From the NCBI GenBank assembly GCA_000320545.1, contig ADNK01000517.1, positions 1,556 through 65,555 on the forward strand: 64,000 bases of DNA. Reading direction: 5' to 3'. The notes beneath the pieces were generated by a model. The model was not told the DNA's origin, searched no databases, and saw only the letters and a list, made by a program, of their open reading frames with translations. The translations under genes and the position numbers were made by a program. Positions 11,711-43,800 of the stretch are shown here, in pieces. Each line of letters starts with the position of its first letter. Within the stretch, counting starts at the first letter, position 1. Origin of the DNA: Bigelowiella natans CCMP2755. Taxonomy: Eukaryota > Protista > Cercozoa.

Positions 11711-12951
11711 CTTTGGTGCTACCTATGTTGCTATATGTCACCGATATTCTTTTTCGCTAAAATTTACGGTACATGGGCAACTATGGTGAAATGAGAGACA
11801 AGGTAGTTAGTGAGCTGGTTTCATTCTATTCATGATAAATCGACTTTTCGAGTGAGGCTTTCTACCATCGGTGCAACCAAATGTTCCCCCCTCTTATCTT
11901 TCCCGCGTTTCTAACTTGTTATTTTGATCTAACCATGCGGATTCCCTCTTGTTCGCTACTTGATCGTGACTAGCACCACTAATTTTCAAATTAACATCTC
12001 TGTTTCGAGAAAAACTGTAAGCTAATCTTTACCTAAAACAAATGTGAGATGCTGTCGTACGTAAAAATTGATGTGCATCTAGGCAACTGCGCAAACAACT
12101 ACAGCTCGTGCGACTTTGAAATTTCCATAGATTTTGTCGTTTGTGCTATTCTTCACCCACCATCTTCAGCAAATGAATCAAATGAATGGAAATTCATCTA
12201 AGCGACACGGGTAAAAATTGAAATACGTTTCTTGAGTCCGTTGGCACGTTGGCACAATACCGGTATTCCGCCATGGTCACTTCGAAAGATCTGAGCTGTT
12301 TCCAAGCTACGTCATGCATTCACTTGCTGTCTAGAAAATTGCATTTTTTTTCCTCTGATGTCATCAAAGAAGAGCAAGAATTCAAGGAGTTTGTCTGTCA
12401 TTGTTTGCTGGCGTATCATCTGTCATTTTTGACTTGCTGCTTTGTCAAACAAGACACACAGAAGGATGCTCTGCCATCAAGTTCATGTGAACAATGTTTC
12501 CATTCTCCTCATTTCATCTGATGAATTGACTTTGCAATCAATTTTAGCCTTGTTTCATCAGCCACTTCGTGAAGAGGAAACTCGAATTACGTCTTAAGAA
12601 AAAGACGAGCTCGACGAACATCAAGCCACTCATCAAAAAAGTTCCCGCGCTCGTCGCATGAAAAGTATTTTGCAAGCGCGAACAAATGTCACAAGATGTG
12701 CGCCGTGAGCGCAAAATTGGAGGAAAAGGGCTCCTTATCAGCTTACTCGGCTCCTGGGAACACCTAGAAGTCCCGCAAGTGTCGTTCCAAATGAGAGTAA
12801 TTGAGGAGAGCTGAATGCAAAGACATCAGCAAGATCAAGACGTATGACAGGTTAGAGCAATAACGAGGGTCTGAAAAGGACTATAGTGCTCGCTGGAAGA
12901 GGCGTCAATATCCAGCAAGCCACCAATATCCAGCAAGCCACCATTGTCACT

Positions 12952-14386
12952 ATGATGTTCGACCGCAAATATTTCAGTGTAGATTGTGAATCCCGTGAAT
13001 GCTCATCCCCAGGATCAGACCCAGCACACCTTAAAATGTTTGAACAGCCTGAGACATCCAGGATGTTCAAAGAAGGACTACTAACGGGCAACTTTGAGCA
13101 ATCCTATTTACCACATCACAACCGTTTTGGAAACCTGACGAATGAAGTACATAAAGGGTACCATAGTTGTCAGATTCAGCAGCAACAGCTCCTAGAAGCA
13201 AGACGGAAGAGGCATACGTTTGATTTTGTTTCAAGTTCTAGTGCTTGTGGAAGTCAACAATCGAGGATTATTTCTAAAGCAAATCGTATGAATCAATTAA
13301 GAATGAAGAAGTTTCAGGTGCAAATCCCTACAGTATATAGTCGGTTGGGCAGTCAGGAAGAACAGAAAAATTGGGAAGTAGCAGACCTTCTGCATCCCAG
13401 CCATAAGCTTCAAAATGTTTCAATTAGACACTGGCCACAAAAGCTCAATTCCGAGTCCCATAACTTTCCAGCTGTCATATATGGAGCGGTTGACACAGTG
13501 CCTGTACTGGGAAAAAGTAGTTTGAGGCACACTATCATTGATCAACAGTATAATTTCGATCCAAGCACACAAATGAGAACCAATTATAACGGATCCGCTT
13601 ATAGAAAACCAGTGAACACTTTAGGCCTGAGAGTAATTGAGGGTACCATCAGGGCTGAAAATGTTAATCATAATTTCAAACGGCGAAAAAATTCATCTCA
13701 CCCCAAGCGTTTCTCACCTCTTGAACGAAATGGAGGTGTAAATATCGAAATAGTCAGACACCTTGATACCACCCCTGACACAAAAAATTTGGGTTTCTGG
13801 CAACGCCAGTCGGTATCAGAATTTCAAACGGCTTCTCCTGAGGAACAAAAAGGCTACATAAATTCCTCAGAAAACGTTCTTAAACGTACATCATTGCGTC
13901 GTCAACGTTCCTCGCCTGCAAAACTGTCGAAGTCTCCTCATGAAGGATCGAAAAGAAGAAGATTATTTCACAAACATTCTTCAAGCCTTCTTGTTTCATC
14001 TCTACATTCACATGTCTCTGTTTCGACAGTCCCAAAAAGAGAGACCACAAAAAAAAGGTTTCCATGTCCGGAATGCGGAAAACTATTTGCTAGACGATAT
14101 TACGTGAACCAACACATGAGAATTCACAGAAATTATTATCCATTTCAATGCAGCTACTGTGTGCGCAAATTCAAGCACCAGTCAAATCTCATCGCGCATG
14201 AACAGGTGAATTAAATTGACGACAAAACCATCCAATCATCGATCATTAAATGTGGGAATCTATCTACTTGCATGATCTCAGGGACACACGAAACTGTACA
14301 GATTCAAGTGCTCACATTGTCCCTCTGGTTATCCACGACGAGACAGGCTGGTTCGTCATTTGAAAAACAAACATGGTTGCAAATGA
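12952..14386 (+). CDS. C2H2 zinc-finger protein (3 C-terminal fingers), 2 exons
   Basis: CPECGKLFARRYYVNQHMRIH and CSYCVRKFKHQSNLIAHEQ, then intron ~14206-14281, then GHTKLYRFKCSHCPSGYPRRDRLVRHLKNKH. TGA at 14384-14386. Confidence 0.85.
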
Positions 14387-15795
14387 CCACTTGCTCTGTC
14401 TTCGTTTCTTCGACAATGCAGCATCCGTCCAATGCACATGCACGCATGCACAATGCAAATGCAGGGCTGGATGTTTTTGAAGAACATCATGCGCTAGTTT
14501 TGCGCGATTTTTTTTTCCACCTGCAGCAAATGCGCACAGACGTGCGTCAGCGCTAGCAGCGGCGGCTACAATGTCTAGATGTGCAAAAATGCGCAAGCTC
14601 AGCGCATTCTTTTAGCCATGATGTTGTTGGGGACGTTCATGATCGTGCATGCAAAAGAGTTCGTGTGCTGGAGCTACGCTCACACAAAAGCTCGTTGCAA
14701 AATCGAAACGGGCCTGTCACATGACAATTGATGTCAATTGTGGACAACGCGTGATGCACGTGCATGCCAATGCACGTCGCCGTCACTGCTAGACTTGGAC
14801 TGACGCAATGCAATGTGGCTAGGTGGGTTGATGGCGAGCCAACAGGTGACGCACTCGGTTCAAAAAGCGATTTCTGATTCATGTTGTCAATGTTGTCAAA
14901 CGTGTTAGTCAAGACCAGACCAGCAGTGCACGCAGTGAACCACACACACCTCTGGACCTGTCCAGTCTCTAGAGTCTGTCTAGCTGTGCTAGCTGTGTGC
15001 GAGGGTTGCGATGCGGGCTGACTAGCTAGCTAGCTGACCTTCACTTGCACACGCACAACCTCGCGCAGTCTAGCAGTGCCAGAGTGTGCCAGAGTGGTCT
15101 CAGGCATGCGCACCACGCACGCTGCATGCTAGGCTGGTGAATGCACACCTGGCACGTCTAGACGTGCATTGAGCTGTGCTAGCTGTGGTTGACGTGCCAC
15201 GTGCACGTGTGTCGTGTCGTGCACTGCGCTAGCTGCGCGCGCCACGTTGAGACTTGTTGTGTCTTGTGGAAACAACGCACTGACCTCGAACAATGAACAA
15301 TGAACAAAGCATTGATGCAAAAGCACTGCGTGAGCAACAACCACATGGGAGACGTGCACAAACGTGTGGCAGTGCCTCAACAAAAATCACAGCGAGGACA
15401 ACTTGTCAGCACCCTGTTGGTGAAACAATGAATCAATGATGATGAACCACGTTTCCAAAGTGTTGCAAGACACTTGCAGTGTGCGAAACGGAGTGCCTCG
15501 AACCAGCTTCAGTGGGGTCCAACCGGAGAAACCGGGAGGAATTTGAGATTGGTGGTCTGGCCACAGAGGAGCAAAGGGACTAGCAGCAATGTGGCGACAC
15601 GTGCGTGGCGACGACGTGGAGCATCCACTCTGAGAAGGATGATGAACAAGAAATGCAGTGCCTCGAACTGGCTTCAGTGAGGACTGACTAGCAAACTAGC
15701 GGGGTTCATGCAAATTGGCACGAACTGAACATTGAATGCATCACAACTAGCAGCCAATGACGACGACGCAAAGCATCCATCCTGAGCAGGAACTT
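14387..15795. other. TpA-depleted, CTAG-retaining intergenic island (strongest example)
   Basis: Manual count: 24 TA dinucleotides in ~1.4 kb, of which 20 are CTAG, 2 CTAC and 2 TTAG. TG, CA, TGCA and CATG are abundant and CpG is retained. Confidence 0.9.
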
Positions 15796-16026
15796 CCTAA
15801 CAGCCACGTCCACACGGAGATCAACGACGTTTGTTTCTAGCCAATGTCCTGTGACTACGAGTAGGAAAGCTAAGGCCTCAATGTCGCAGGATGAAGTTGC
15901 AATCAATTTCTACAATGTCGTCGTCAAATCTCGAATTCATTGCAAACGAACATGTCGCACGGAGAAAATGGCAATGATTCTTTGAAATCTGGGAAACAAA
16001 TTTTTGAATTTGATTTAGATGCCACC

Positions 16027-16767
16027 ATGAGGCTCCGCCTACCCCTCGCGGTACTCTGTGCGCTCCTTACGAGTCGGCTAGCCTGCTGTACGGAAATCAA
16101 CAGCACAGTCATATCTACGGTCTTCCATTCATTACGAAATATAATGTGGCCTAAATTTGAAATGCAAAGTGCAAGCTTGGAGACATCACACATCCTGACA
16201 TGTTTCAATTTACAATCTAAGGACTACGAGCCCTTGCAGAGAAGTCTAGACCAACAGGCTGTGCGACTGAAGTCATACAGCAACCAAATAGGTAATAATT
16301 TATCGTTATAGGTAGGAAACCTGTAATCATTGAGAATTGCTTGTAGCTGCTCACCAGGAAGCTGTCGGAAGAGAGTTACAGCAAGCCACTCTAGTTGACA
16401 CGAGGAACTGGGAAATCATAAAATCACATCAGGTCTCTGCTACCCGTTTCAGATAATTTGCTACTTTGTGTAATTATTAACATTGTTAGGCATACCTTGC
16501 ATCTCTCAAAAATCAGTATGATGCAGTGAAGTCGGATGCTCTGACAGCGGTAGAAAATGTGGCAAATGTGATAAAAATTGTATTTTGAGTGAATATATGC
16601 CTCAGCTTCAACAAGGAATGGCTGACGTCCATATTCCTCCTGCTCCTCCTGCAACACCAATGGCCTCTGGAGCCGCTGTTTTCCCTCAAATATATTCTGG
16701 CTACCAGACACAAATTTATTCAAATTCTGTGCAAGCTCCTTTTCCGATTACTCCTCCAGTTGTTTAA
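16027..16767 (+). CDS. Possible small secreted protein (hypothetical, probably spliced)
   Basis: GCCACCATG start with signal-peptide-like MRLRLPLAVLCALLTSRLACC. Pro-rich terminal ORF at 16585-16767. Exon linkage not established. Confidence 0.3.
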
Positions 16768-16904: not shown

Positions 16905-17484
16905 CCACCACCGATAAGTTGGACGTATGCATTATCGATCTTCCACGTGGCTTCATTTTCACCGGCAATCGAAGTACACGACGGGCAATGCATACACATG
17001 CATGTATAGTATAGATTTACTAAAATGCATTTGTCACATGCGCACCTAATTGCTCAAAAAGCAAAAAGTCATAAGGAGAGATAGATCTGAGATATAGCCA
17101 TGCCCGGCGATGCGGCAATACTTGAGTCATCCCTTCGATCTAGCATGTCTAGCTAGCTAGATACATGTGCATGGCGTGGCGTACAGCCTCCATAATTACT
17201 CTCAGCATGTGCCGCGTGCGTCATCTCCTGCTATGACAATAAGAAATATTTCATATATTCACACTGACACACACAGCAACATCTGTAACTCACACGTAGC
17301 AAACGGAAGTAGCAGTCGTACTGATATCACATGCTTTCTCTGCCGATCGCATAATCATGCGGGCATGGTCTGTGTTATTATTAACTATTATTGCTTAGCC
17401 CCCGTAATGCATTAATTGAAGGCATTATCATACTACATACAAATGTATGACTTTCTTTTCGAACGAATATATTCATAATCGCTC

Positions 17485-22901: not shown

Positions 22902-24283
22902 GTGTTTTCGAAAAAGTAGTCTCCGAAATTGGGAAAATGGGGATACGAAAAATAACACATGCTAGGACCCTCTGCGATTGTGACAACTATGAGCTTCTTC
23001 ATGTGACTAAGCATGCAGGAGTAGCTTCTCTGGTAGTTCTAACGTTCTAAGAGGTTAACCGAGTGAGTAAGCAACGCCACATTGTTGAGCAACGTTCTCT
23101 CGTTCGGGGAAGGGGGGTTCCAAAGGTTACGTTCCCGTGTTTTTGCGCCACGTCGGATTACGTCTAGGCTGAAATTCGACATAAATGCACTCCCTTTTAT
23201 AGACTGCGACATCACGGAAATAGCTTGATGTTTTCATCAGCATTTTTCCCAAATAAAATGTTGTCGTTCGAACCAATCGCCGATCCTTTTCTGCACAATT
23301 GGCATTCCTCCCGTAGATCTACTCGCCCTGTCGATCGGCTTGTCAACAGCCTGCAGCCCATCGGAATGTCGAATTGACACGAATCTTGAGCAGAGTGATC
23401 CTTGAGCTCATTCAGTAATGCAGGTTCTGTTCAGCATTCTTCTTCTTCCTTCAGCCGCAGATCAGCCACTCGTTCAATCTGACATTCGGCTGCACGTCGA
23501 CATGCACCATTCTGGCATTGGAATTGCTTCGTGCATCGTTGGCGCTTGGAACCACCATCCATCATTGCATTGATCAATCAATTCGTCGTTCATTCAAGTG
23601 GTGAGCCAGCACACTAATCGTCGGTTGCACTGACGAGCGCTGTCACGAAGGAAGAGTTGGAAGGAGAGTGGAAGAGTGTGAGGAAGAAGAAGAAGATGCA
23701 AAGAAGAAGAAGAAGAATGAGAAGACGAAGCAGCACGTGGATTAGAGGAAGTCCAGAAATCATAGAAGTGTGTGTGCGTCTATACATCACCCTCAAAAAC
23801 TGCACACCACTAGACCAGGTTCTCCCATTCTGATCAAGCCTGGTGTCTGACGAAGTCACGGGGCTCACGTTCATCGATCGTGCTGAGGTGCGCACAGCGG
23901 AAGCACCTCATCATGGACTGTGTGAGTGCGTGCATGTGATGTGTGTCCTTGTTGATCGAGCACAATTTGATCACAAGAAGGTGCAGTGATCACAACTCTT
24001 ATACTCTACCTTACTAGCTAGACTGAAGGAGACACAACGATGCCATCCAGCCAGCGCCACAAACTCACTCATTTTTCAACATCAGCACTAGACATAGCAG
24101 GCAGGGAGCGGACAAAGCTCCGCAACAAACTGCTCTGCACGACCAAACGCGGACTGGCGTCAAGAATTTTGGGCCGCTGTGCTCTGTGCTTCATAGAGCT
24201 TATGCATTGCTACATCACATTGCCAGAAATTCAGGATTTCATGTGTGCAAACTTGCATCCATCCAGACAAACAAGTGAAGGCT

Positions 24284-24525
24284 CTGCCCGCTCATTAGTT
24301 GCACATTGATTTTGTTCATTGCTGACAGTGATTGCATGCATTGTGTTCTGTGTTGCAAATGTCTGCTCGCTCATCAGCTGCACACTGCTAGCATTGGTTT
24401 TGTTCATTGCTGACAGAATTTGCATGCATCGTGTTCTGTGTCACAAACATCTGCTCGCTCATCAGTTGCACATTGGTTTCATTTATTGCTGACAGAACAT
24501 GCATCGTGTTCCATGTTACAAACAT
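24284..24525. repeat. Three-copy ~80-bp degenerate tandem repeat
   Basis: Units start at 24284, 24363 and 24451 (CTGCYCGCTCAT...TTGCTGACAG...GCATYGTGTTC...CAAA). Most differences are TA/TG/CA swaps. Confidence 0.9.
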
Positions 24526-31634: not shown

Positions 31635-33668
31635 ATGAAGGCAGCTCGAGGGTCTTGTTTACCCAGCCCTCTCGCGCTCCTTCCCACCTCACTCACCCTT
31701 CTTTTTCTCTTTTTGAGTTCTTTATATTCTCATGCCAAACCTGTGGATACAAATGAACCCACCTGCAACTTTGTCAAAGAAATCTGCAACAGTGTCGAGA
31801 ACAAAGTACAGTCCAATTCTTGATCCATAATTGATACTGAAACGACCAGAGTGTAAAGATTCTCTTTTTAGATCCCTCTGGCTACTGGATCTCTGATATC
31901 TGCGCAAACAATTGAGGAAAATCTTTCTAATGACGATAAACGGAGCTTCGAGCACCTCCTTGGTCACGCCCTTCGAAATACATCAGCAGTCCATTTCATT
32001 TCACAGACTTTTGTGGACGTCATCAGCCAGGTTCATAATCTAGCAACAAGACTACATATATTTATCGAGCGAATGTGATTTCTCTCTTGCCATTGTCTTG
32101 CTTTAGAATAATGTGGAATTTGGGGAGTTAGTTATTATTTGCTATCTTCATAATAGGTGATGCAGAAAGCTGCAGCGGTTACAAATGGCACACAACCCGA
32201 CCAGTCACTCCTAAAAGCATATGGAACTGGCTCTCGAGGCAACACGGTATTTAGGAGCGAAAACCATTGATGCTGATTTTGAGCCACTCATGAATAAGTT
32301 TTATCGCAGGGCTACTCAGGGCCGTCCCTGGAGGCCATCAAATATGCATTATCTGCCAACGGTTGGAATTTATTTTAAGTCAAATGGATTTCTAAAGGAG
32401 AATATTAATTTTACAGTCCATTACTAACTTGTTCTCCCCTTCGTTATGAAAGGCAATATTCGGGAGAAGTGGGCTCTCATTTACATTCTAACCAAGAACC
32501 GTTATTTCGATGACGTGATGACCCCGCTAGCTGCACAGGCTAACAAAACTGGCGATATGTCTGTGCTGGAGAGCTTGGGGGTCAATGGCTCGGCTGTGGT
32601 ACAGAGATATCTCGATGTGTACGCAACGAAGAACGTTCTGGATCCTTCCGAGAAGTAAGAAATGCAACATAGACGCAGGAAAATCTGATTGATCGAGGAT
32701 GCGGACAGCAGTGTACGAATGAGACGAAATTGATTTATTTCTCTAGGTATAGCAATGGCATCATTGACTTTGCATTTGAACCGTTTAATTCCTGGGTTCG
32801 CTTCGACTTTGATGGCCCAGAGAACACCTGGTACCCAGATAAACAGTCGCGCTGATATCGCACATGCATCAAAGCATCTGAGATCCAATTTGCTCCTCTA
32901 TCATAGGAAAGGCGTACGTAACTCGAAGGCTGGCGGATGTGGCACAACAGACCTTTTCTCGAATGATCCTAGCATTTTCCCGCCACTGTCAAGGTACGAG
33001 CTAGAATACCAGTGCAACTCCACGCACACAGCCTGTAAGCTGATATGGGAGCCAGGGCTGCTCTGCTACGACATCGTCAACACCCCATTCGCCGCTGCCT
33101 CCGCTTCATCATCTTCAGCGAGGGAAATCCCTGGATATTTGGCCAGAGCAGATTCGCTGGGATATCGACACGTCGCAGGGCCCTCGGGTACCACTGCTAA
33201 CGTGCTCCAGCTGGCAGTCTTGCTTGGAATGGGCGGGGAGGAAGCTCTGGCACTTTTGAGATTGGCGATGGCCGCCTGGATGATTCCTACCGATGATCAC
33301 AGTTTTTTTGAGATCATGCTTGGAGCTGATTCCTTCCTTCCGCCAAAGTTTCGCCTTGCCATGGGTATGTTGCTGAATGTATTCGTTCTCCCTGCCTGCT
33401 AACCCCAATTACATTCCTCCCCCTAATTATATTCCTCCGTCTGTTTCGACATATTCTTCACTTAATATTCCTTGAACCATCAGGAATGGAGGACCTGGGA
33501 CAACTTATGCCCGAGAATCTCCATATAGGTAATAAGGTCTTCCTGAAGACTGACGTTTGGGGTTCAGTAGGTCAGTGGCTCCAGAGAACAGATGGGAAAC
33601 GGTTATGCAGCGTTATGACTCCGGAAGCACGTAGCTACCTATCGAAACTAACAGGTATCACATGCTGA
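31635..33668 (+). CDS. Secreted protein with MCF1-SHE-like domain (GPSGTT ... HSxxE), 8 exons
   Basis: Hydrophobic signal (LALLPTSLTLLFLFLSSLYSHA). Seven GT-AG introns give an open frame containing GNIREKWAL, VAGPSGTTANVL and AWMIPTDDHSFFEIM. TGA at 33668. Family assigned from motif recall only. Confidence 0.7.
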
Positions 33669-34251
33669 AAATCAGGTGCAGCGGTACAAAGTTCATTAGA
33701 AGAATAAGCGAACTTCACATTGATGAGAAAACTAGTAGTCTTTGGTAGAGATTACCCTCCTGATACATTCCGATATCTGCAGCGTTCGTCTGCAATATTT
33801 ATCTTGCAGGGCTCCCTAAATGCATGAATCTTTAGAAATTTTATGGTTACACTATACTGTGAAATCAAATTTAACTATTATTATTTAATTGTGTACACGG
33901 CATGTTTGTAACAAGCACACAAAAATAGACAGCAAAGCAATGCATGTGGTATCGTCTGAATCGTATTATAGTCATGCGATGATGATGTGAATGAAAGCAG
34001 GTGAGGAAAAAATGTAGCGCATGTCTAGCTAGCTAGATGTCTACAAATGCACCTGATCTTGTCTAGTTGTTGGCACATTGCATTAGCGTGTGTTCGTGTG
34101 GCACTCATGCCACGAGCGAGCGTGTTGACTGGCCACAACATGTGTGACTCTAGGACTGCATGTGCTAGTGTGGCTACACCATGACACGGCTAGATCGACG
34201 GCCGCTATGGGACGCGCTCTTTGATGATGTGCACGTGCGCCAACATCTCTA

Positions 34252-34577
34252 TGTTGCGCGTAAGGTGTTCACAGGCCGAGGCGCTACGTGCACAAGTAGG
34301 CAGGGGGGGGGAAAGGCACGTTTGCTTCCTTTTGAAGAGTTGTGTTTATTTTTATTAAAGATTATATTTTTATTAAATCGTGCACTGCGTAATCATTCGC
34401 GAAGCTTTCGCGAATGCCGCCGCACGTGGGGCAGCACACTTCCGGTGTGCTGCCATGAGTCCCGCCGGAACCCACGTGCCTATGCTGTATTAATATCTAC
34501 GTTATCTATATTCTATATCCGCGACAACCCCTTTGTTGTCGCACGTGACTTGTGCCCGCGTAGTGGTACGCGCTACA
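34252..34577 (-). repeat. 3' LTR (326 bp)
   Basis: Identical by eye to 39642-39967. 11-bp imperfect terminal inverted repeat TGTTGCGCGTA/TACGCGCTACA. AATAAA motifs on the element strand. Confidence 0.97.
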
Positions 34578-34585
34578 CCTCCCCC
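34578..34585 (-). other. Polypurine tract
   Basis: GGGGGAGG abuts the 3' LTR on the minus strand. A further purine run GGGAATAAGGAAGGAAGGAAGGAG lies just upstream. Confidence 0.85.
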
Positions 34586-34628
34586 AAGTCACGTTGCTCC
34601 TTCCTTCCTTCCTTATTCCCTTAGACCT

Positions 34629-37600
34629 TCATCGCTTTCGGAACTTCACCAACCACCAGGTAATAGATTCCTCTCTAACCTTATCTCCTTTGTCGCTTAC
34701 CCAGAACTCACCTTCGTCCTTAGGTTCGTGTCCATACCAGCCCTCTGCATCAAGGTCCCCCAGGACCTTATACCAGTGCTCAAAGGGTAAGTCGGGAACA
34801 GCTAGGTAGAGTAGCTGATATTTTCCGTCCTTTATTTTCATAGCTACCCTCTCCATATTTCGTAATCCAGGGTAGCCTAGATAGACAATCTTCATGCGCC
34901 AATCGTCGTTCACCCTGACCTTATTGTTTCCATATTCCACATCGAACTTAGGTCGGGGTCCTAAACAAGGCATTGCTCGCTCCCACACAGTAGGGTTTAC
35001 TTTAACATCCTCTAGGAGCTTCTCACCGATATCATAATTCTTTAGGTGACTGATGTGGCGCAAGGTGACCCTGTTCCCATCATAGATGTAGTACTGCTTC
35101 CTCCCCTTCCTCTCGGTAACCTTTGCAACGCCACCCCAGAAGGGGTCTTGTTTATTTCTCGATCTCAGATTTACCTTGGCCCTAACATACTGTCCTTCCT
35201 TTAGAACTCGGCCATCGTACGGGACCTTCTCGTCTTCGCTCTCGGTATCGTCGTCGTTGTCGTCGCCTTCTTCCCTCTCCTTATCCTTGATACCTCCCCC
35301 AGACGTGAAGGTGTCGTTTACTAACCCTTGTATCTTGTCTGGTGTGGTGCTATTTATCCTGCTTAGGTTGGCCAAGGTGCGGTGGAGTCGCTCTACCTTG
35401 GAGTTGGACTGGGCATAGTATACAGGTGAGGCATCAATATTAGGGTGTGGTAGCTGTAGAAGAGAGGTCTCATTATCCACATGTAACTTCTTTGGTATCT
35501 TGTTTATGCTAACTTCATCAGGGATAGCCTGGAGCTCAGACTCCCAGGTACGGTAGCAGTTAGTAAGCCTCTGCTTATATAAGCCTTTGTTCTTCTTAGC
35601 AACGTTGACCTTGATAATCTTTTTAACCCAGCACTTTCCAGTGGCCACATCAACGAAGGTAAGGTAGTGATAGCCATCGTACTTATAAACATCAATTTGC
35701 ACGATATCTAAGAAGTTCCTTGCTTTGATTTTCTTAGATGCACGGCTCTTGCTGGACTCCTTGGTGGCGACGCCTGCCGCCTTCAAGCTGGAGCACCTGC
35801 AGCCACGCAGGTATGTCCTTATCTCTTTTAGCTTGTAGGGCCAGTAGTAATGGTAGAGTAGAGCAGTGATATGGTTTTCTCCTACGTGTGCAGGTCCATG
35901 GGCGGTAAAGAGAAGGGCTCCCCTGGTCCGCCGTGGCACGTAGGTACGCCTAACATTATTAGTGTATACATATATCCTATCACTAAGTACCTCATGCTTG
36001 TGTTTGTATTTATCCAGGTGTTCTTGAAGGTGCTGGAGCTCCTCTGGCTCAGGCAGGAAGTCGCCGTCCTCGAAGGTAATCGCGTTAACCATAGGGGTGA
36101 CCTGGGTAGGGACTTTCTTTTCGAACAGCCTGCTGAAATAGTCAGCAAGCTGCTTGTCTCCTGGTGCGTAGACCACTGTCCTCTTGTCCCTAAACTCTTC
36201 CGTGTCCGCCCTCATAGCTGCATACTCATCGTTAGGCGCTTCGAGCTTGCGGTCGATGCCTAGGAGGGGCTTGTGGTCAGTCATTAAGGTGAAGCTGGGC
36301 ACCGACAGCAGGTAGTATCTTAGTTTCCTCTGCGCCTCAGTCATGGCTTTATACTCTCCTTTTGTAGGGCTGTACTTGGCCTCAGCTGCTGTGCAGGCCC
36401 TGCCCCACACCCGTATGATCTGCTGGTCTTGGGTAAGTACAGCAGCCATACCTAGCTTAGACCAGTCTGTCCATAGGGTAGCTGGTCTAGTAGTGTCTAG
36501 CTTAGCATTCAATAGGGTGTTGCTGCATAACTTTATTAGGTTATCGAAGTGGGCATCAAGGCCAGCCTTGGCCCACACCTTAGCGAAGCTGAGGCCTACA
36601 GAGTTCTCCTTCCGGTAAGCAGTAGTAAAAGCAGCTGCAGTCCTAGCGTAGGTAGGGGAGAACCTACGTAGTATCCAAGCTGCAGTCTGCAAGAATGACT
36701 TTAACTCCTTTGCATTCTTAGGTTTAGGGGCTTGCTGTAGTGCTGCTACTTTCTCGGGGTTTGGGGTGATGCGGCCTTGCTCCAGGTAATATCCACACCA
36801 CTTGATTCTTGTAGCTAGGAATGTACACTTCTGCAGTCTAATAGTAAAACCGAAGTGTGCAAACCTAATAAATATATTTTCCAGGAGGAAGATCTGAGCG
36901 ACGACTGTGTTGGTACATATTATGTCATCATCCACATACACAAACACAAACACCCACAACACAGACGCCATCCCATCATGTGTGTATGCCCTGTAGTTCT
37001 GACTACTGAACGCATCCCCTGATATGCTTAGGCCGTAAGGGAATACGACGAAGTGCCACTTCCTGTGCCTGCTGGAGAACGCGGTAATGGGGCGGGAGGT
37101 TTTGTGGATGGGTGTCTGCATGTATGATTCATTTTTATCTAGGGAAGAGTAGTATTTGTATCCTATGACGTGTTCAATAACGTCATCTATCCTTGGTGTA
37201 GGTGTCTGGATCCTCTTTATTACTCGGTTGTGGCGGATGAAGTTGTGCGCCAGGCGGAAGAAAGGGTAAGTAGGTTTCTTAGCTAGCACATGTCTCACGT
37301 TCCATGGTGAGTTGCTTGGCTCTATCTTCCCTTCCTTTGCCCATTCATTGATCTGCCACTCTATCTTTTCCCAGTCCGCTTCCGGTCGCCTATGTTCTGG
37401 GTCATTGATGATGCACTCTTCGTATCCCTTCTTTAGCTCGATCTTTACTGGGGTAAGCTTGCTGGAGGGCTTCGTCGTCGGCTTGGTGATGTCAGAGTAC
37501 TTCTCGTTTAATATTTTATTAATGTACTTTTTGCCTTTGTCGATATCCCAATCATCAGCTGGGGGGGTCTTGTCCAGTAGCTCCGTTATCTGTCGGATGG

Positions 37601-39602
37601 TCTTGCCGGGGTTCTTCTTCCGTAGCTCGGTAGGTGTAGGTAGCTTGTTGTCCGCTAGGTCCATAAACTCTAACGCATTAACGCTTGACTCAGAGGTCCA
37701 CTCGTCAAGCCGTATCATGTTCTGGCTGATGGTCCTGCCTGACTTCTTTGGCAACTTAGCAAAGTATATCTTGTGATTGTAGAATGATATGATCCCCCCT
37801 AATTTTTCTAGGGCATCCTGTCCGAGGAGTAGTTCCATGGATAAAGTCATGGCTACTCGGGTCTTGATTTGGGTCTCCGCGTCGCTGCCAGGTATCTGTA
37901 GCTTTAGCATTAGCTCACCGACGGTCTTCATGGAAGAGCTTCCGTCTGCTTGAGCATATTTACGTTCTTTCTTAGTCACTTGATCCAATAGTCCTAACCT
38001 TCTTACTGTGCTTAGGCTTATGAAGGACTTCGGCATGCTGCCACTATCCCAAAGGGCAGGTAGTTTCTTGTAGTCTCCGTAGCTGTCTTTAACTTTAACC
38101 TTGGTCATAGCAACTTTGATAGTCCTGTTAGCGTCTTCGTCATTAATGTTGCATACTCCTAAGTTCTTTATGTCGTCTAGGGTCATGGGCTTGTCTTGGT
38201 CCTGCGTTGCTGGTACTGCTGTCTTCGTCGGCGCCTGCTTAAGGTGATCTAATATTCCGTTTATCTGCTGCTGTATAGCATTGATACTGTTCTGCTTTTT
38301 GTTCTTATATTTATTGTTCTTCCCGTTGTTGCTGCCTTGCCATTTGCTGTTGTTATATCCTTGTCCTCTGCCTTTCTTTCTCTTTAACTTCTCGTAGTGT
38401 TCGTTGAGCTGCCTGATCGTCATCCTGGGTCGTCCTTCTTTCCTGTCTCTGCAGTCTTTAGCGGTGTGTTTCCCTTTACGTGAGCAGTATCCGCAACGTC
38501 GGTTACCTTCCCTGTCCTTGTACCAGTCTCGCTGCGGCTTAATAGCGTTAATGTTTCCTATGCCAGGTACCTTAGGGCTGGTAAACTTGCGGTCCTGCTC
38601 CTGCTCGCGTAGGGATATAGCCTGCACTGCTGCCTCCATCGTGGTGTAGCCTTTCTCCGTAACGTAAGTGGATTCCTTTATCTTTAACTTGAACTCTTCA
38701 AACCTTGCCTGATCATCACCTGTGTTGTAATTAAAATCATGTAGTTCGTCGATCATATCCTGGAAGCGCGTGGCAAAGTCTCTAACAGGTTCTCTCTCAT
38801 GCTGCATCATTGCTCTGTATTTTCTAATAGCCTGGGGTAGGGAGTTAGCATCCTGTTCATTTACAAAAGCCTTCATTATCGCCTCAACGTCTCGTAGCCC
38901 ACTAACTGTAGTGTGTATTTTCTCTAGCTGCCTGATCCGGGTCCTGCCTGTCTCGTAAAGGTCCATGGCTTGCTTTATTATAGCTAGCCATTTGAGCTTG
39001 TCGTTTTCGGTGGGGTTAGGGGTAAAGTCGCAGAGTATACTCCTAGCGTTCTTCCACCACCTCCTTGCCTCACCTCTTTTCCCGTTGTATTTCGTTATCA
39101 TAACCGGTGCTGTTTTAACAGACATGAACTGGGTGTTCCGCTGTACCGGCTGCTGCTGCTTGACGGTGCTCTGGGTCGTCCCCCGCGAGGCGCCCAGACC
39201 CCCGTCGTTCCTAAACAAAGCTGCCCACTCTGGAGGTAAGTCTGCTTCGTAATCCATGATGTCCTGCATGATAGCTGCCCAAACATCATGTGTCTGATAC
39301 TTGTATTCTATCGATACTTTCAGTTTGGCGTAGTTGCTCGCCCTGGGTCGCAAGGCTCGTAATGCCATTACGACCTTCTTGCTTTCGGCGGCCACGTCCT
39401 CGTCGTCCGCCTCGTAGAAGTTCTCCAGTGCCTCTGCTGCTGCATCTGCTTTCTTAATCCCGGGTGCTGGTCCCGGCGGTGCCTGTGGAGGTGTTCCTCC
39501 TCCTTCCTTAGCGTCCGTATCGCCCTTCCTTTCCTGTTTCTGCTCGTGCCCTTGCACGGCCTGCGAGCCAAAGTCCTGCTGTTCTTCTAGCTGCTGTGAC
39601 AT
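34629..39602 (-). CDS. Gag-Pol polyprotein, 1657 aa, with extra C-terminal Dam/DIRS-methyltransferase-like domain
   Basis: Zinc knuckle CGYCSRKGKHTAKDC; protease ALWDSGS; RT FPYGL...YVDD; RNase H TDWS..E..TDHKPL..ADYFSR; integrase HHCC, VQID..VDNE..SNSKVER; GPY/F-like region; then 126 extra residues. Confidence 0.95.
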   Translation of the reverse strand: MSQQLEEQQDFGSQAVQGHEQKQERKGDTDAKEGGGTPPQAPPGPAPGIKKADAAAEALENFYEADDEDVAAESKKVVMALRALRPRASNYAKLKVSIEYKYQTHDVWAAIMQDIMDYEADLPPEWAALFRNDGGLGASRGTTQSTVKQQQPVQRNTQFMSVKTAPVMITKYNGKRGEARRWWKNARSILCDFTPNPTENDKLKWLAIIKQAMDLYETGRTRIRQLEKIHTTVSGLRDVEAIMKAFVNEQDANSLPQAIRKYRAMMQHEREPVRDFATRFQDMIDELHDFNYNTGDDQARFEEFKLKIKESTYVTEKGYTTMEAAVQAISLREQEQDRKFTSPKVPGIGNINAIKPQRDWYKDREGNRRCGYCSRKGKHTAKDCRDRKEGRPRMTIRQLNEHYEKLKRKKGRGQGYNNSKWQGSNNGKNNKYKNKKQNSINAIQQQINGILDHLKQAPTKTAVPATQDQDKPMTLDDIKNLGVCNINDEDANRTIKVAMTKVKVKDSYGDYKKLPALWDSGSMPKSFISLSTVRRLGLLDQVTKKERKYAQADGSSSMKTVGELMLKLQIPGSDAETQIKTRVAMTLSMELLLGQDALEKLGGIISFYNHKIYFAKLPKKSGRTISQNMIRLDEWTSESSVNALEFMDLADNKLPTPTELRKKNPGKTIRQITELLDKTPPADDWDIDKGKKYINKILNEKYSDITKPTTKPSSKLTPVKIELKKGYEECIINDPEHRRPEADWEKIEWQINEWAKEGKIEPSNSPWNVRHVLAKKPTYPFFRLAHNFIRHNRVIKRIQTPTPRIDDVIEHVIGYKYYSSLDKNESYMQTPIHKTSRPITAFSSRHRKWHFVVFPYGLSISGDAFSSQNYRAYTHDGMASVLWVFVFVYVDDDIICTNTVVAQIFLLENIFIRFAHFGFTIRLQKCTFLATRIKWCGYYLEQGRITPNPEKVAALQQAPKPKNAKELKSFLQTAAWILRRFSPTYARTAAAFTTAYRKENSVGLSFAKVWAKAGLDAHFDNLIKLCSNTLLNAKLDTTRPATLWTDWSKLGMAAVLTQDQQIIRVWGRACTAAEAKYSPTKGEYKAMTEAQRKLRYYLLSVPSFTLMTDHKPLLGIDRKLEAPNDEYAAMRADTEEFRDKRTVVYAPGDKQLADYFSRLFEKKVPTQVTPMVNAITFEDGDFLPEPEELQHLQEHLDKYKHKHEVLSDRIYVYTNNVRRTYVPRRTRGALLFTAHGPAHVGENHITALLYHYYWPYKLKEIRTYLRGCRCSSLKAAGVATKESSKSRASKKIKARNFLDIVQIDVYKYDGYHYLTFVDVATGKCWVKKIIKVNVAKKNKGLYKQRLTNCYRTWESELQAIPDEVSINKIPKKLHVDNETSLLQLPHPNIDASPVYYAQSNSKVERLHRTLANLSRINSTTPDKIQGLVNDTFTSGGGIKDKEREEGDDNDDDTESEDEKVPYDGRVLKEGQYVRAKVNLRSRNKQDPFWGGVAKVTERKGRKQYYIYDGNRVTLRHISHLKNYDIGEKLLEDVKVNPTVWERAMPCLGPRPKFDVEYGNNKVRVNDDWRMKIVYLGYPGLRNMERVAMKIKDGKYQLLYLAVPDLPFEHWYKVLGDLDAEGWYGHEPKDEGEFWVSDKGDKVREESITWWLVKFRKR

Positions 39603-39613
39603 TGTTAGTCAAA

Positions 39614-39636
39614 TCGTTTCCCGTGTGTGGAAGCCA
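39614..39636 (-). other. Primer-binding site (tRNA 3' end complement, Glu/Asp-like)
   Basis: TGGCTTCCACACACGGGAAACGA begins 5 nt inside the 5' LTR boundary. Its complement TCGTTTCCCGTGTGTGGAAGCCA resembles T-loop, acceptor strand, G discriminator and CCA. Confidence 0.7.
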
Positions 39637-39641
39637 AAGGT

Positions 39642-39967
39642 TGTTGCGCGTAAGGTGTTCACAGGCCGAGGCGCTACGTGCACAAGTAGGCAGGGGGGGG
39701 GAAAGGCACGTTTGCTTCCTTTTGAAGAGTTGTGTTTATTTTTATTAAAGATTATATTTTTATTAAATCGTGCACTGCGTAATCATTCGCGAAGCTTTCG
39801 CGAATGCCGCCGCACGTGGGGCAGCACACTTCCGGTGTGCTGCCATGAGTCCCGCCGGAACCCACGTGCCTATGCTGTATTAATATCTACGTTATCTATA
39901 TTCTATATCCGCGACAACCCCTTTGTTGTCGCACGTGACTTGTGCCCGCGTAGTGGTACGCGCTACA
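39642..39967 (-). repeat. 5' LTR (326 bp)
   Basis: Identical to the 3' LTR and followed by the TCTA target duplication. Confidence 0.97.
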
Positions 39968-40473
39968 TCTAGCTAGCTAGATCTCCGATTCAATGCGTGC
40001 GCCACACTGAACGATGTGCCAATTGCGATGTGCTGCAAGCTTGTTCTAGAATGTTGCACACACATGCATCTGCTACACACGCAGATGAGTCTGAACCATT
40101 CTTGACAGAAATTTGAACTGAAAACTTCCCATTTTCCCCCCCTTGTTCATCAGAGTCTTGTTATTAAGTAGCGACATAGACCAGCCTATCGCCAGACACA
40201 GTAACAGATGGGATTTTTCATCTCCGTGAGAAAAACGGGTAGTAACGGTATTTGGAGTGGACAAATACGGGTAGTGACGGGAGTAGTAATCCTTTCAATT
40301 TTTAACGTTCCACACATAATGATCGATCCCCCTCTCCTTGGACTACCACACCAGCTGCCTGATTAGGTGGCGGCAAGTCATCCTTCATCTCACTTCGTAG
40401 TCCACAGTCTGGATTAAAGCAAATATCTACCGAAGGATACCTCCAAGACCTTATTGGGACATTATAGCGAAAC

Positions 40474-40730
40474 ATGCAAACACTAGAGAGCCTCCTCTCC
40501 CTACCGGGTCGAAACTCACATCCTTCTATTATTTCAAGATCCAAATATGTGCCTACGTTCACAAAATTTACATCTTCATTGGGTTTTAAAATATATTTCA
40601 ACCTGATATCAGAGCCGAAGCAACTTGACCTTGACAAGGACTTCCATCAGAGAACACAAATCCAAACTGACATTAAAGTAACTAAGCCTGCCATGGAGCG
40701 TGCCATGGGTGGAGAGCGCGTGCATACACA

Positions 40731-40818
<88 letters not shown>

Positions 40819-43800
40819 CAATCCCTCACTGACTCACCGACGTATAAATACATACCATACAACAGAAACTGGTAGAACAGACTGAAGAGGATATCCACTC
40901 AACCAGCTACTTGTCCACGGAACGGGAACAACTACGCCGGCAAATAGCCGCTCAGAAGAATCGAAACCAAATTACAGAGGAAAAGTTGCAGGTATTAACC
41001 TTGCTGTATGGAATAATATGAAGAATTTATAGTATACTGACAACCTACGACATACGGAAAACACACACACACACACAATAGAGCCTCAGACGAAGGGACC
41101 AGGAAACAGGGCGGCAGCTGACTGCGTTCCAGGTCGCTGATGATGACCTGGAGAAGAAGATATCTACATTGAATCAAAAGATGGAGATAAGAAGAAATGA
41201 CTATAGAAAAATTGCAACGGAACTGCAGCAATATCAGAGAATATTTGATATATCACCTCGCTCATCGCTTTCATCACCACGATCGAAGCAACGTGATGGA
41301 AATAAGTTGGCGCATGACGGAAAGGAGTTGAGCGATACAAAGAACGGAGAACAAGAGGGTGATGGGGCAGAAGACAGGAGCTGGAACAGCATACAAACGT
41401 ATTTCAAAAGTGCTTGTGAGAAGGTTGAACTCCTGCACCATAAACAACAGTTGGCGAAACTTATGGCTTCTCGGCCCCTTTCTCTGTCCGAGAGGATGTT
41501 CCTCAAGGAGTTGTCTGTGTTCCAGAAGAAAACAGAGGTTGGTTGTTGGGGTTATTGTCGTAGTGGTGGTGGTGGTGGTGGAGCGGCGACGGTGTTGATA
41601 TTTTCCGAGTTCGCATAGTGGGGAAAGATATCGTCTCTCCTTTGAGTATCGTGTTTCTTGAGGAAGGTCGTATATGAAAGCAACTGTCACCACCTTTCTT
41701 ATCAAGCGTACTGGTTCTTATTATTACTTCATAGGTGGACCAGAAGGCTGTCATATGGAATCAGAGAAGGTGCGCTGCAGTAATGACGCGCCTTGCCAAG
41801 ATTCACGAAGAGAAGATAAATCAGCTCCAAGAGGTAGAGAGCAGTAAGGTGTTTGGCATCATCGATTGCATACGACAGAAGAAGATGCGTATGGGCCATT
41901 GGCCGACGACCAAGAAACCAAGCTGCGAGTCAGTTTCTTCCTCTTCTCCTTCCTCCCTGTCACCGTTCCTGGTGAATCTCTATTATAACTTCTTCGGTAA
42001 ATACTGGGAGGTTCGCACGAGGCTGTCGCAGAAGCAAGCACATGCGAGGATGTTCGTACGATGGCGATCTTTAACTTTCCGGCGGCGCAAACTAAGATCC
42101 ACATGTAGAGGGTGTGTTGCTCTGCGTGATAGGTTGTTGGCCTCCACGAGCCTACGAAAATGGCGAAGGAAGTCTTACGAGCACAAGAAGCGGAGGATGC
42201 ATGTCTTCAGCGAAGATATTCGGGCACAGATTCGAGAAACTCAGGTATGTGTTGTTTTTGACATCTGCTGCTGCGTTCAAAGTAGTAATAATGATATCAA
42301 TTTTGTTTTTTTGTAAGTTAAATATTCTAGTAGTCGTTGTTTCTCGATGCTGCGATCCGAACTGACTTTCAGGCTGTTTCTACGACAACGACAGACCCCT
42401 TCTCCCTTCATCCCTTGTAAACCTGTTACTTCTTCCTTTTGTGTTCAGGAGAAGACGGAACGTGTTAGACGAGGGAACAGCGCACTGGCTGAGACTCGAA
42501 GAAGGAAATTGAGGACCATCGGGCTACGAATATGCGCGGACTTTCTCCAAACCGTGCGTAGAAAGAAGCTTACCGTCGCCCTTCTCCAGTGGAAGCAACT
42601 CAAAAGCACTCAGCTCATGGAAGAAGTAGCCTGTGAAACAAGGCATTTTGCTGCCAGCTACCAGGCGGACATCTCCCTCGCGCAGAAGTTCGCAAGCCTG
42701 ACAATCACGACCATGCAACACTATTCTCTTCAACGAGCGGGGATCAAGGCTTACTACCGCTGGTTGGGCGCATATCGAACCATAGCAGCAGCCAGACAGT
42801 CTGCTTCACGAGCTAAGAGGCACCACCGCCGTGCGCTCCTCCAAAGCTCCATTACTTCCTGGAGGCGAGCGGCCGTGAAAATCGACACGCTGCGGCTACG
42901 CATGCAAGTGTGTCGCAAGATGAACGAGGAGAGGCTCCTACGCTGCACCTTCTCGAGCAATTGGAAAATCTTAACGGAGAGACGGAAGCGAGCCAGATAC
43001 CTCCTGCAGAAATACATGATATCAAGAAAGTCGCGTAGATTATGTAGAACTGCATTGTCAGTTTGGCAACGTTACGCAGATAGCTCACACATATCAACAA
43101 CAATGGCAAAATCTAACCAAAGACAAGACGGCCTCCGCCAACCTAGTAACCAGGAGGGTAAAACCACCCGAATACTACTAACATCTCGTATGGAAAGTCA
43201 TAGTGATAACCAAATATCCACCCCAGATCACGGGCGTGATCCTTCCTATTCCCCTCTTGCACCATCTGCCTCTAATAGCAGCATCAAAAATATTATGGAG
43301 GCGGAGACTACGAAGATTAGGGCAAAAATCAGTCAATTATCCTTCGGGATGGCCCAAATGAGGATTGCGGAAAGGAAGCGGTTTCTCGCGAAGAGAGTGC
43401 GCCTCTACTCGGAAAAGAGCCTATTACTCCACAGTTTTTCAGTATGGAGAGGACACCACACTAAGAGACGAACACTCCGTATCGTGATGTGTAAGCGGGT
43501 GGCGAGGATGAAACGAAATACGTTATTTCGCTGGGGCATTTGCTCCGCCTCCCGAGCATATGAAAAGGCCGAAGCTGAACGCAAGGCCTCCCTGCAAGCT
43601 CTTCAAAGGCGTCTGCGTGAAGCAAAGGAAAAGAGCAAACGGCTAGGAGAATGTTTGGCGATGATGAGGCACGAACCGCATGCCGAATGCCTAGAGCAAG
43701 AAGTTCTCCTCAATGCAGACCTCAAAGCCAAATCAGAACAAAACCTTGCTCTGGAGCAGAAGTTAAGGGTTCTGAAAGCTGAGAACATGAAGATGGCGAG

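Follow-up and report, generated by a model that had tools for sequence, protein, structure and literature searches.

In a 64,000-nucleotide stretch of the Bigelowiella natans CCMP2755 genome (contig ADNK01000517.1), here called the window, a young Ty3/gypsy retrotransposon lies within an island of DNA stripped of the dinucleotide TpA (TA). Young insertions of its family show a real and strong preference for such islands, and the islands predate the insertions, which bears out the original prediction that the element postdates the mutagenesis of its surroundings. Judging from sequence, we lean towards the explanation that these elements are steered to the islands by the chromatin of mutator-affected domains. 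A host TpA mutator would rewrite domains that keep a silent chromatin state, and the integration complex may read this state, leaving a 4-bp duplication without a sequence motif. The islands would give young elements gene-free landing sites, in which the elements would later lose TA to TG/CA in patches, with CTAG the last to go. The features of the window are listed below.

34252-39967, minus strand: young Ty3/gypsy long terminal repeat (LTR) retrotransposon, 5716 bp
39642-39967, minus strand: 5′ LTR, 326 bp, TG...CA
34252-34577, minus strand: 3′ LTR, identical to the 5′ LTR over 326 bp
34248-34251, plus strand: left copy of the target-site duplication TCTA, which borders both element ends
39968-39981, no strand: right TCTA copy and 14-bp (CTAG)n palindrome, incidental to targeting
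34629-39608, minus strand: single gag-pol frame, 1659 codons, first ATG at 39602
38054 (protease), 36938 (YVDD of reverse transcriptase, RT), about 35693, 35477 and 35393 (D, D and E of integrase), minus strand: gag-pol domains, which also include RNase H
34578-34586, minus strand: putative polypurine tract adjoining the 3′ LTR, seen in the sequence, with a presumed function
34632-35018, minus strand: C-terminal Dam-like N6-adenine methyltransferase fold in a predicted model, likely inactive
34866-34877, minus strand: GYPG, probably in register with the catalytic NPP-aromatic motif, judging from V-Y-x spacing
33969-34251, no strand: left part of the TpA-stripped island, a single-copy sequence in a DNA search
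39968-40161, no strand: right part of the island
14329-16051, no strand: second, element-free island with a 177-bp repeat at 15650-15826

The direct LTRs with TG...CA ends, the short target-site duplication and the domain order of protease, RT, RNase H and integrase, by which the class is assigned, are those of a Ty3/gypsy element. The identical LTRs, open frame and normal TA content (397 TA) that had been claimed for it are all found, and the copy itself is unmutated at TA. A putative primer-binding site by the 5′ LTR (39615-39641) ends in a tRNA-like GCCA complement. In the flanks, as had been stated, every TA has a 5′ C or a 3′ G (12/12 in 34021-34251 and 5/5 in 39968-40140), and 11 of these 17 are CTAG.

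A TA with neither a 5′ C nor a 3′ G is termed unprotected here, and an insertion was assigned to an island when at most one unprotected TA occurs within ±100 bp. The background of 342,590 bases was drawn from 12 random stretches, from large contigs at round coordinates (20 stretches), and from the window with 32,001-42,000 excluded. The predicted enrichment of the family in islands is confirmed: 43 of 52 insertions pass the test, as against 99 of 1681 windows of 200 bp from the background (odds ratio 76, p 6e-41). When the thresholds approximate those of Mettrop et al. (10.64898/2026.01.13.699255), the counts are 30/52 insertions and 62/1681 background windows. An earlier LTR set, partly from other loci, gives 20 of 33 flank sides without an unprotected TA in 100 bp, compared with 12%. 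Under a loose wall rule, islands at insertions have a median length of 927 bp.

The TA depletion is centred on the insertion point and comes near background by ~800 bp. This centring is what speaks for the view that insertion itself causes TA loss in the flanks while protecting the element's own DNA. We regard this view as very improbable, since element-free islands exist, the flanks are often repeats that are equally stripped elsewhere, the left and right island extents around insertions are uncorrelated (rho 0.04), and old copies are not protected, as described later.

The family is a recent burst, the young copies of which are untouched by TA mutation. The best 40 of 685 candidates in the LTR search and the best 107 of 350 in the RT search were scored, all at 100% identity. 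From the 107 RT loci 57 were taken, the selection being made by full-length frame and not by flank. Paired LTRs are present in 56 of the 57 loci, and 52 of these 56 have a perfect 4-bp duplication. The LTRs are identical within the copy in 51/56 elements, and 37/56 paired copies are identical to the window element. TA-type changes in the 56 elements, each with 397 TA, amount to one private change and one variant common to two copies. The assembly may homogenise repeats, yet private changes are present among the copies. An LTR match at 86%, considered as an old copy, was rejected as a rearranged young copy; a degenerate pattern for decayed LTRs gave no match. At one locus (L007, G000:C557), two young copies are separated by ~125 bp and contain short internal duplications as well as replacements that resemble template switches. 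No empty allele was seen in five DNA or RNA read runs, which are possibly the source of the assembly DNA; at each joint the read contigs enter the LTR by 24-25 letters, short of the 31 letters set for bridging. The RNA run X15 touched only the neighbouring gene, and no new letter appeared in the window flanks across the runs.

Near-random insertion followed by purifying selection would leave only the copies in dead DNA. The region is gene-dense, with genes on both sides of the islands, and the bias is common to three gypsy families, both of which agree with such selection. We nevertheless consider it improbable as the whole explanation. The family copies are very recent because they are near-identical, and in a binomial test the excess persists even if only 10% of the genome tolerates insertion (p 2e-4). 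Moreover, a 5-kb long interspersed nuclear element (LINE) family of like age survives outside islands. This young family (L327:1439-6396, 4958 bp) has a 3′ 600 bp that lacks unprotected TA in all copies. After two copies lacking a flank and two decayed ones were dropped, both flanks pass the island test in 0 of 11 young copies; therefore, 5-kb inserts survive outside islands.

Several observations weigh against steering by the chromatin of mutated domains and should be noted. Nine of the 52 sites do not pass; most of these lie at island edges, and three (L148, L160 and L168) are clearly outside. Selection is mixed into the counts, because all of them come from one assembly. The LINE control is not neutral: this LINE favours TA-rich targets, and in 3 of the 11 copies one flank touches an island. 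The window family yielded a single old copy, and old copies with non-island flanks are stripped too. The left flank in the window has no paralog and matches no other place, so that not every island is a recognisable relic. Finally, one family copy has inserted into the TA-free 3′ end of a young LINE (L334) that otherwise carries no mutation.

The L334 insertion fits equally well a direct read-out of sequence, in which no epigenetic mark would be involved and the integration complex would respond to the TA-free, CA/TG-rich DNA as such, for instance by way of nucleosome placement. The signal is itself defined by sequence, which is in keeping with such a read-out. However, L334 is a single case, and no motif is found at the joint. 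Many TA-poor background stretches are G+C-rich without a CA/TG excess, whereas the insertion flanks have that excess (rho 1.63 versus 1.16). We rate a pure sequence read-out as unlikely.

The original prediction had also stressed a palindrome at the insertion site. The 14-mer TCTAGCTAGCTAGA occurs at 17148, 34024 and 39968, and (CTAG)3 at 15022, as had been reported, and the 14-mer is indeed restored when the element is removed. The special meaning given to it does not hold. The 14-mer is (CTAG)n microsatellite sequence, with 24 occurrences of CTAGCTAGCTAG in 353,623 bases; its copy at 17148 is outside any island (12 unprotected TA in 17001-17250); and the duplicated TCTA sits at one edge of the palindrome instead of straddling its axis, with 3 of 7 symmetric pairs at the window site. 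Recognition of CTAG or a palindrome by the integrase is exceedingly improbable, even though CTAG is 2.9-fold enriched across the insertion flanks; this enrichment arises because CTAG survives and forms short repeats. CTAG overlaps the joint at 4 of 52 sites, where 7% would be expected; none of 52 other joints has the 14-mer within 20 bp; and the symmetry about the duplication (1.71 of 7) shows no excess over controls (1.76). The end tetramers are of 45 different kinds in 56 sites. Targeting of the palindrome or of CTAG is refuted by these counts.

In older copies of four retroelement families, TA has given way to TG and CA in about equal measure. The change followed insertion, is patchy and reaches CTAG last. 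The single old copy of the window family lies only 313 bp from a young copy (G000:C2135). Among its 158 aligned TA, 74 have become CA and 70 TG (144/158, the decay that had been predicted for aged copies), 7 have changed otherwise and 7 are kept, so that 151 are lost; the kept ones are 4 of 7 CTAG and 3 of 151 others. With this copy as the query, no further old copy was found among the best 40 of 685 candidates. In a second gypsy family (L169-L171, L265-L294; 1813 aa, CCCH fingers, 611-bp LTR), loci with less than 1% non-TA divergence keep TA, whereas 15 loci at 6-14%, some of which are two ends of one element, keep almost none. This family offers a full age series, from near-identical down to ~71% LTR identity, and several of its young copies are nested in their own stripped relatives. 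In two old elements, the 5′ and 3′ LTRs are separated by 45 and 66 transitions, respectively, with a single transversion in each pair, and many of the differences are paired TG/CA swaps. Since the pairs differ almost only by transitions, the TAs of each LTR were resolved independently after integration. As judged from CA versus TG, both strands were mutated about equally in old elements, and the change on both strands of integrated DNA is seen in old and intermediate copies alike.

The loss is patchy: one LINE copy has lost 68 of 198 TA at 0.07% other divergence, with 0/84 changed in the middle of the element and 49/65 near the 3′ end. The most decayed young LINE is in an island, and three others at island edges have 0-2 changes. 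In three partly decayed copies, 125/478 unprotected, 27/237 half-protected and 0/25 CTAG sites have changed. Counted per adenine, with two copies sharing reference sites, 10/287 changed with C two bases upstream versus 76/468 with A, and 17/287 with a 3′ G versus 61/468 with T. Thus a 5′ C and a 3′ G slow the mutation, and CTAG is the slowest; it is not immune, as 7 of 41 are kept in old copies. Old copies at L278-L294 also show secondary A to G changes at ApT (AAT 0.23, CAT 0.19, GAT 0.12) and no surviving change of TG/CA to TA. A third gypsy family (L341-L343, 1873 aa) is in mid-decay, and its least mutated LTRs are already TA-poor, so that active copies may propagate stripped sequence.

An old copy flanked by ordinary DNA forms an island of its own, whose borders fall no more than a few hundred bases from the element; at 21 of 53 insertion sites, the flanks match repeats in other retrieved loci. 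These observations suggest that earlier transposon or viral DNA, now scarred, underlies many of the islands. The 177-bp repeat of the second island lies in islands at 20 of 20 loci inspected (754 candidates for the island query), and its copies show TA and TG/CA exchange like old elements, the pairs not being independent. The second island takes up the gap from a C2H2 zinc-finger frame at 12856-14214 to an ATG near 16028; islands can therefore abut probable gene starts. A further TA-poor, CA/TG-rich island without a young element is at 23197-24483.

The 129-residue C-terminal tail of the polyprotein should be considered next, since the original prediction assigned targeting to it. The tail was said to be methyltransferase-like, and a model predicted from a 29-row alignment (predicted local distance difference test score, pLDDT, 96.7) agrees, having an adenine-methyltransferase fold. 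It resembles phage DNA N6-adenine methyltransferases (E 1e-5 to 1e-4, template-modelling score 0.63-0.68) and, at a middling level, PCIF1 (Z 7.0, root-mean-square deviation 3.4, 112 aligned). A Foldseek search of the PDB gave nothing at E 0.001 or better, the top rows being methyltransferases; a single-sequence model was unusable (pLDDT 33.5). A profile search found 45 clusters, many of which are C-termini of gypsy polyproteins. By sequence, the tail alone has no meaningful match in the PDB and none in the Atlas, no PHROG family of note and no phage tblastn match, and the PDB profile matches are limited to the SH3-like part upstream. Pfam Dam matches nothing in the genome, the clade being below that model; one relative of the tail matches it at E 0.032. 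A search for MT-A70 (host AMT1) gave no match anywhere, controls included.

The catalytic pocket is described as Val, aromatic, x, Asn-Pro-Pro, aromatic in 10.64898/2026.05.21.726589. At this position, as placed by the V-Y-x spacing, the tail reads V-Y-L-G-Y-P-G, and NPP occurs in 0 of 29 rows, which have GYPG or variants. Since NPP is replaced by GYP, the tail is likely catalytically inactive, yet it is conserved. A 429-codon frame elsewhere (L201:7095-8384, minus strand, G000:C767) has the same Dam-fold domain (WLGYPG) without a Pfam match; it has no close copy among the best 150 matches and is possibly domesticated or a relic.

The original prediction proposed that the islands carry modified adenine, which the Dam-fold tail reads to place the family. 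The match of the fold to N6-adenine methyltransferases, the conservation of the tail across the 45 clusters and the secondary change of A to G at ApT seen in old copies are consistent with this model. However, gypsy families without the tail have TA-free flanks at 6/8 and 3/3 insertions, as judged from 200 bp per flank, often from one flank, with the three copies of the third family partly decayed. The total of 9/11 does not differ from the 43/52 of the tailed family (p = 1). Because tail-less families also favour islands, the preference can arise without the tail, and a need for it is not supported. In addition, the DAM-LTRs of other species are tied to N6-methyladenine (6mA) of permissive, not silent, chromatin. 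We give the adenine-mark model little credence. On the predicted model, the tail is likely to serve as a binding module without catalytic activity; it may contribute to the island preference but is not required for it. There is a small chance that the dead methyltransferase reads the guide mark of the mutator (6mA, inosine or a bound host factor) as a homing beacon, related families arriving in the same domains by means of other tails. Both tail-less families end in an acidic stretch and an IS..NI...R.R motif (L170:7870-8139, L341:7314-7583), a candidate second targeting tail that presumably recalls histone H2A-H2B binding peptides; the C-terminal 90 aa of the two families match no Pfam family. 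Of the linked system of defence and targeting first proposed, the preference and the decay stand, whereas targeting of the palindrome or CTAG and the need for the tail do not.

TpA hypermutation of integrated viral DNA has been described in B. natans as an active host process, reported for TpA only, with adenine deamination by an ADAT2-like deaminase proposed and with RT and DDE domains enriched in TpA-poor genes (Mettrop et al., 10.64898/2026.01.13.699255, main text). The change of TA to TG and CA, the clustered TpA-poor, CpA/TpG-rich windows and the species are the same here; proteins 99-100% identical over the tail bear the source label Bigna1. In contrast, that main text contains no transposon age series, LTR-pair evidence or link to insertion sites, and no mention of CTAG, LTR, retrotranspos, gypsy or insertion site; its supplements may bear on context or repeats. 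The DAM-LTR retrotransposons of Fernandez-Moreno et al. (10.64898/2026.05.21.726589) are likewise Ty3/gypsy-like elements carrying a Dam-type adenine methyltransferase domain. Their domains keep NPP, whereas the window clade has GYP, so that on the predicted model the window element shares the fold and lacks the catalytic motif. In the available text, the DAM-LTR domain is connected with 6mA on the element rather than with the choice of insertion site, and Bigelowiella, chlorarachniophytes and Rhizaria are not mentioned.

What is new is the homing of retrotransposons to TpA scars and a degenerate Dam-tail clade, the mutator and the DAM-LTRs being known from 2026 preprints; literature searches of incomplete coverage found no report of retrotransposons homing to TpA-stripped islands. 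If gypsy integration reads mutator domains, hundreds of insertions would be a ready map of these domains, and the integrase tails would be probes for the mark. Such a map would help in the search for the guide signal and the enzyme behind TpA mutation in B. natans. Known from viruses, the mutator is shown by the age series to affect host retroelements too, where it works in patches on both strands once an element has integrated. The slowing by a 5′ C and a 3′ G is a standard for testing candidate deaminases. The GYPG clade represents a methyltransferase-fold family that Pfam-based surveys would miss.

Ty5 is an LTR element targeted to heterochromatin. Chromoviruses also target their integration to heterochromatin (10.64898/2026.05.21.726589), and plant LTR elements nest in older copies (PMC6911290). 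The elements described here are alike in that Ty3/gypsy families favour presumably silent or repeat-derived DNA and older copies of their own family. They differ in that their target is marked by the scars of an adenine-directed mutator, in that the window family has no palindrome preference, and in that Pfam scans find no chromodomain at the integrase C-terminus, where the Dam fold is predicted instead; by its sequence, the window element is not a chromovirus. Fungal repeat-induced point mutation (RIP) destroys integrated transposons by dinucleotide-specific C to T transitions on both strands. Dinucleotide-specific transitions on both strands destroy integrated transposons in B. natans as well. 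Unlike RIP, the B. natans mutator changes A to G at TpA, raises G+C, and is reported, in the main text describing it, in vegetative lines and on single-copy viral DNA. By analogy, the system would work like the heterochromatin homing of gypsy elements coupled to a RIP-like defence.

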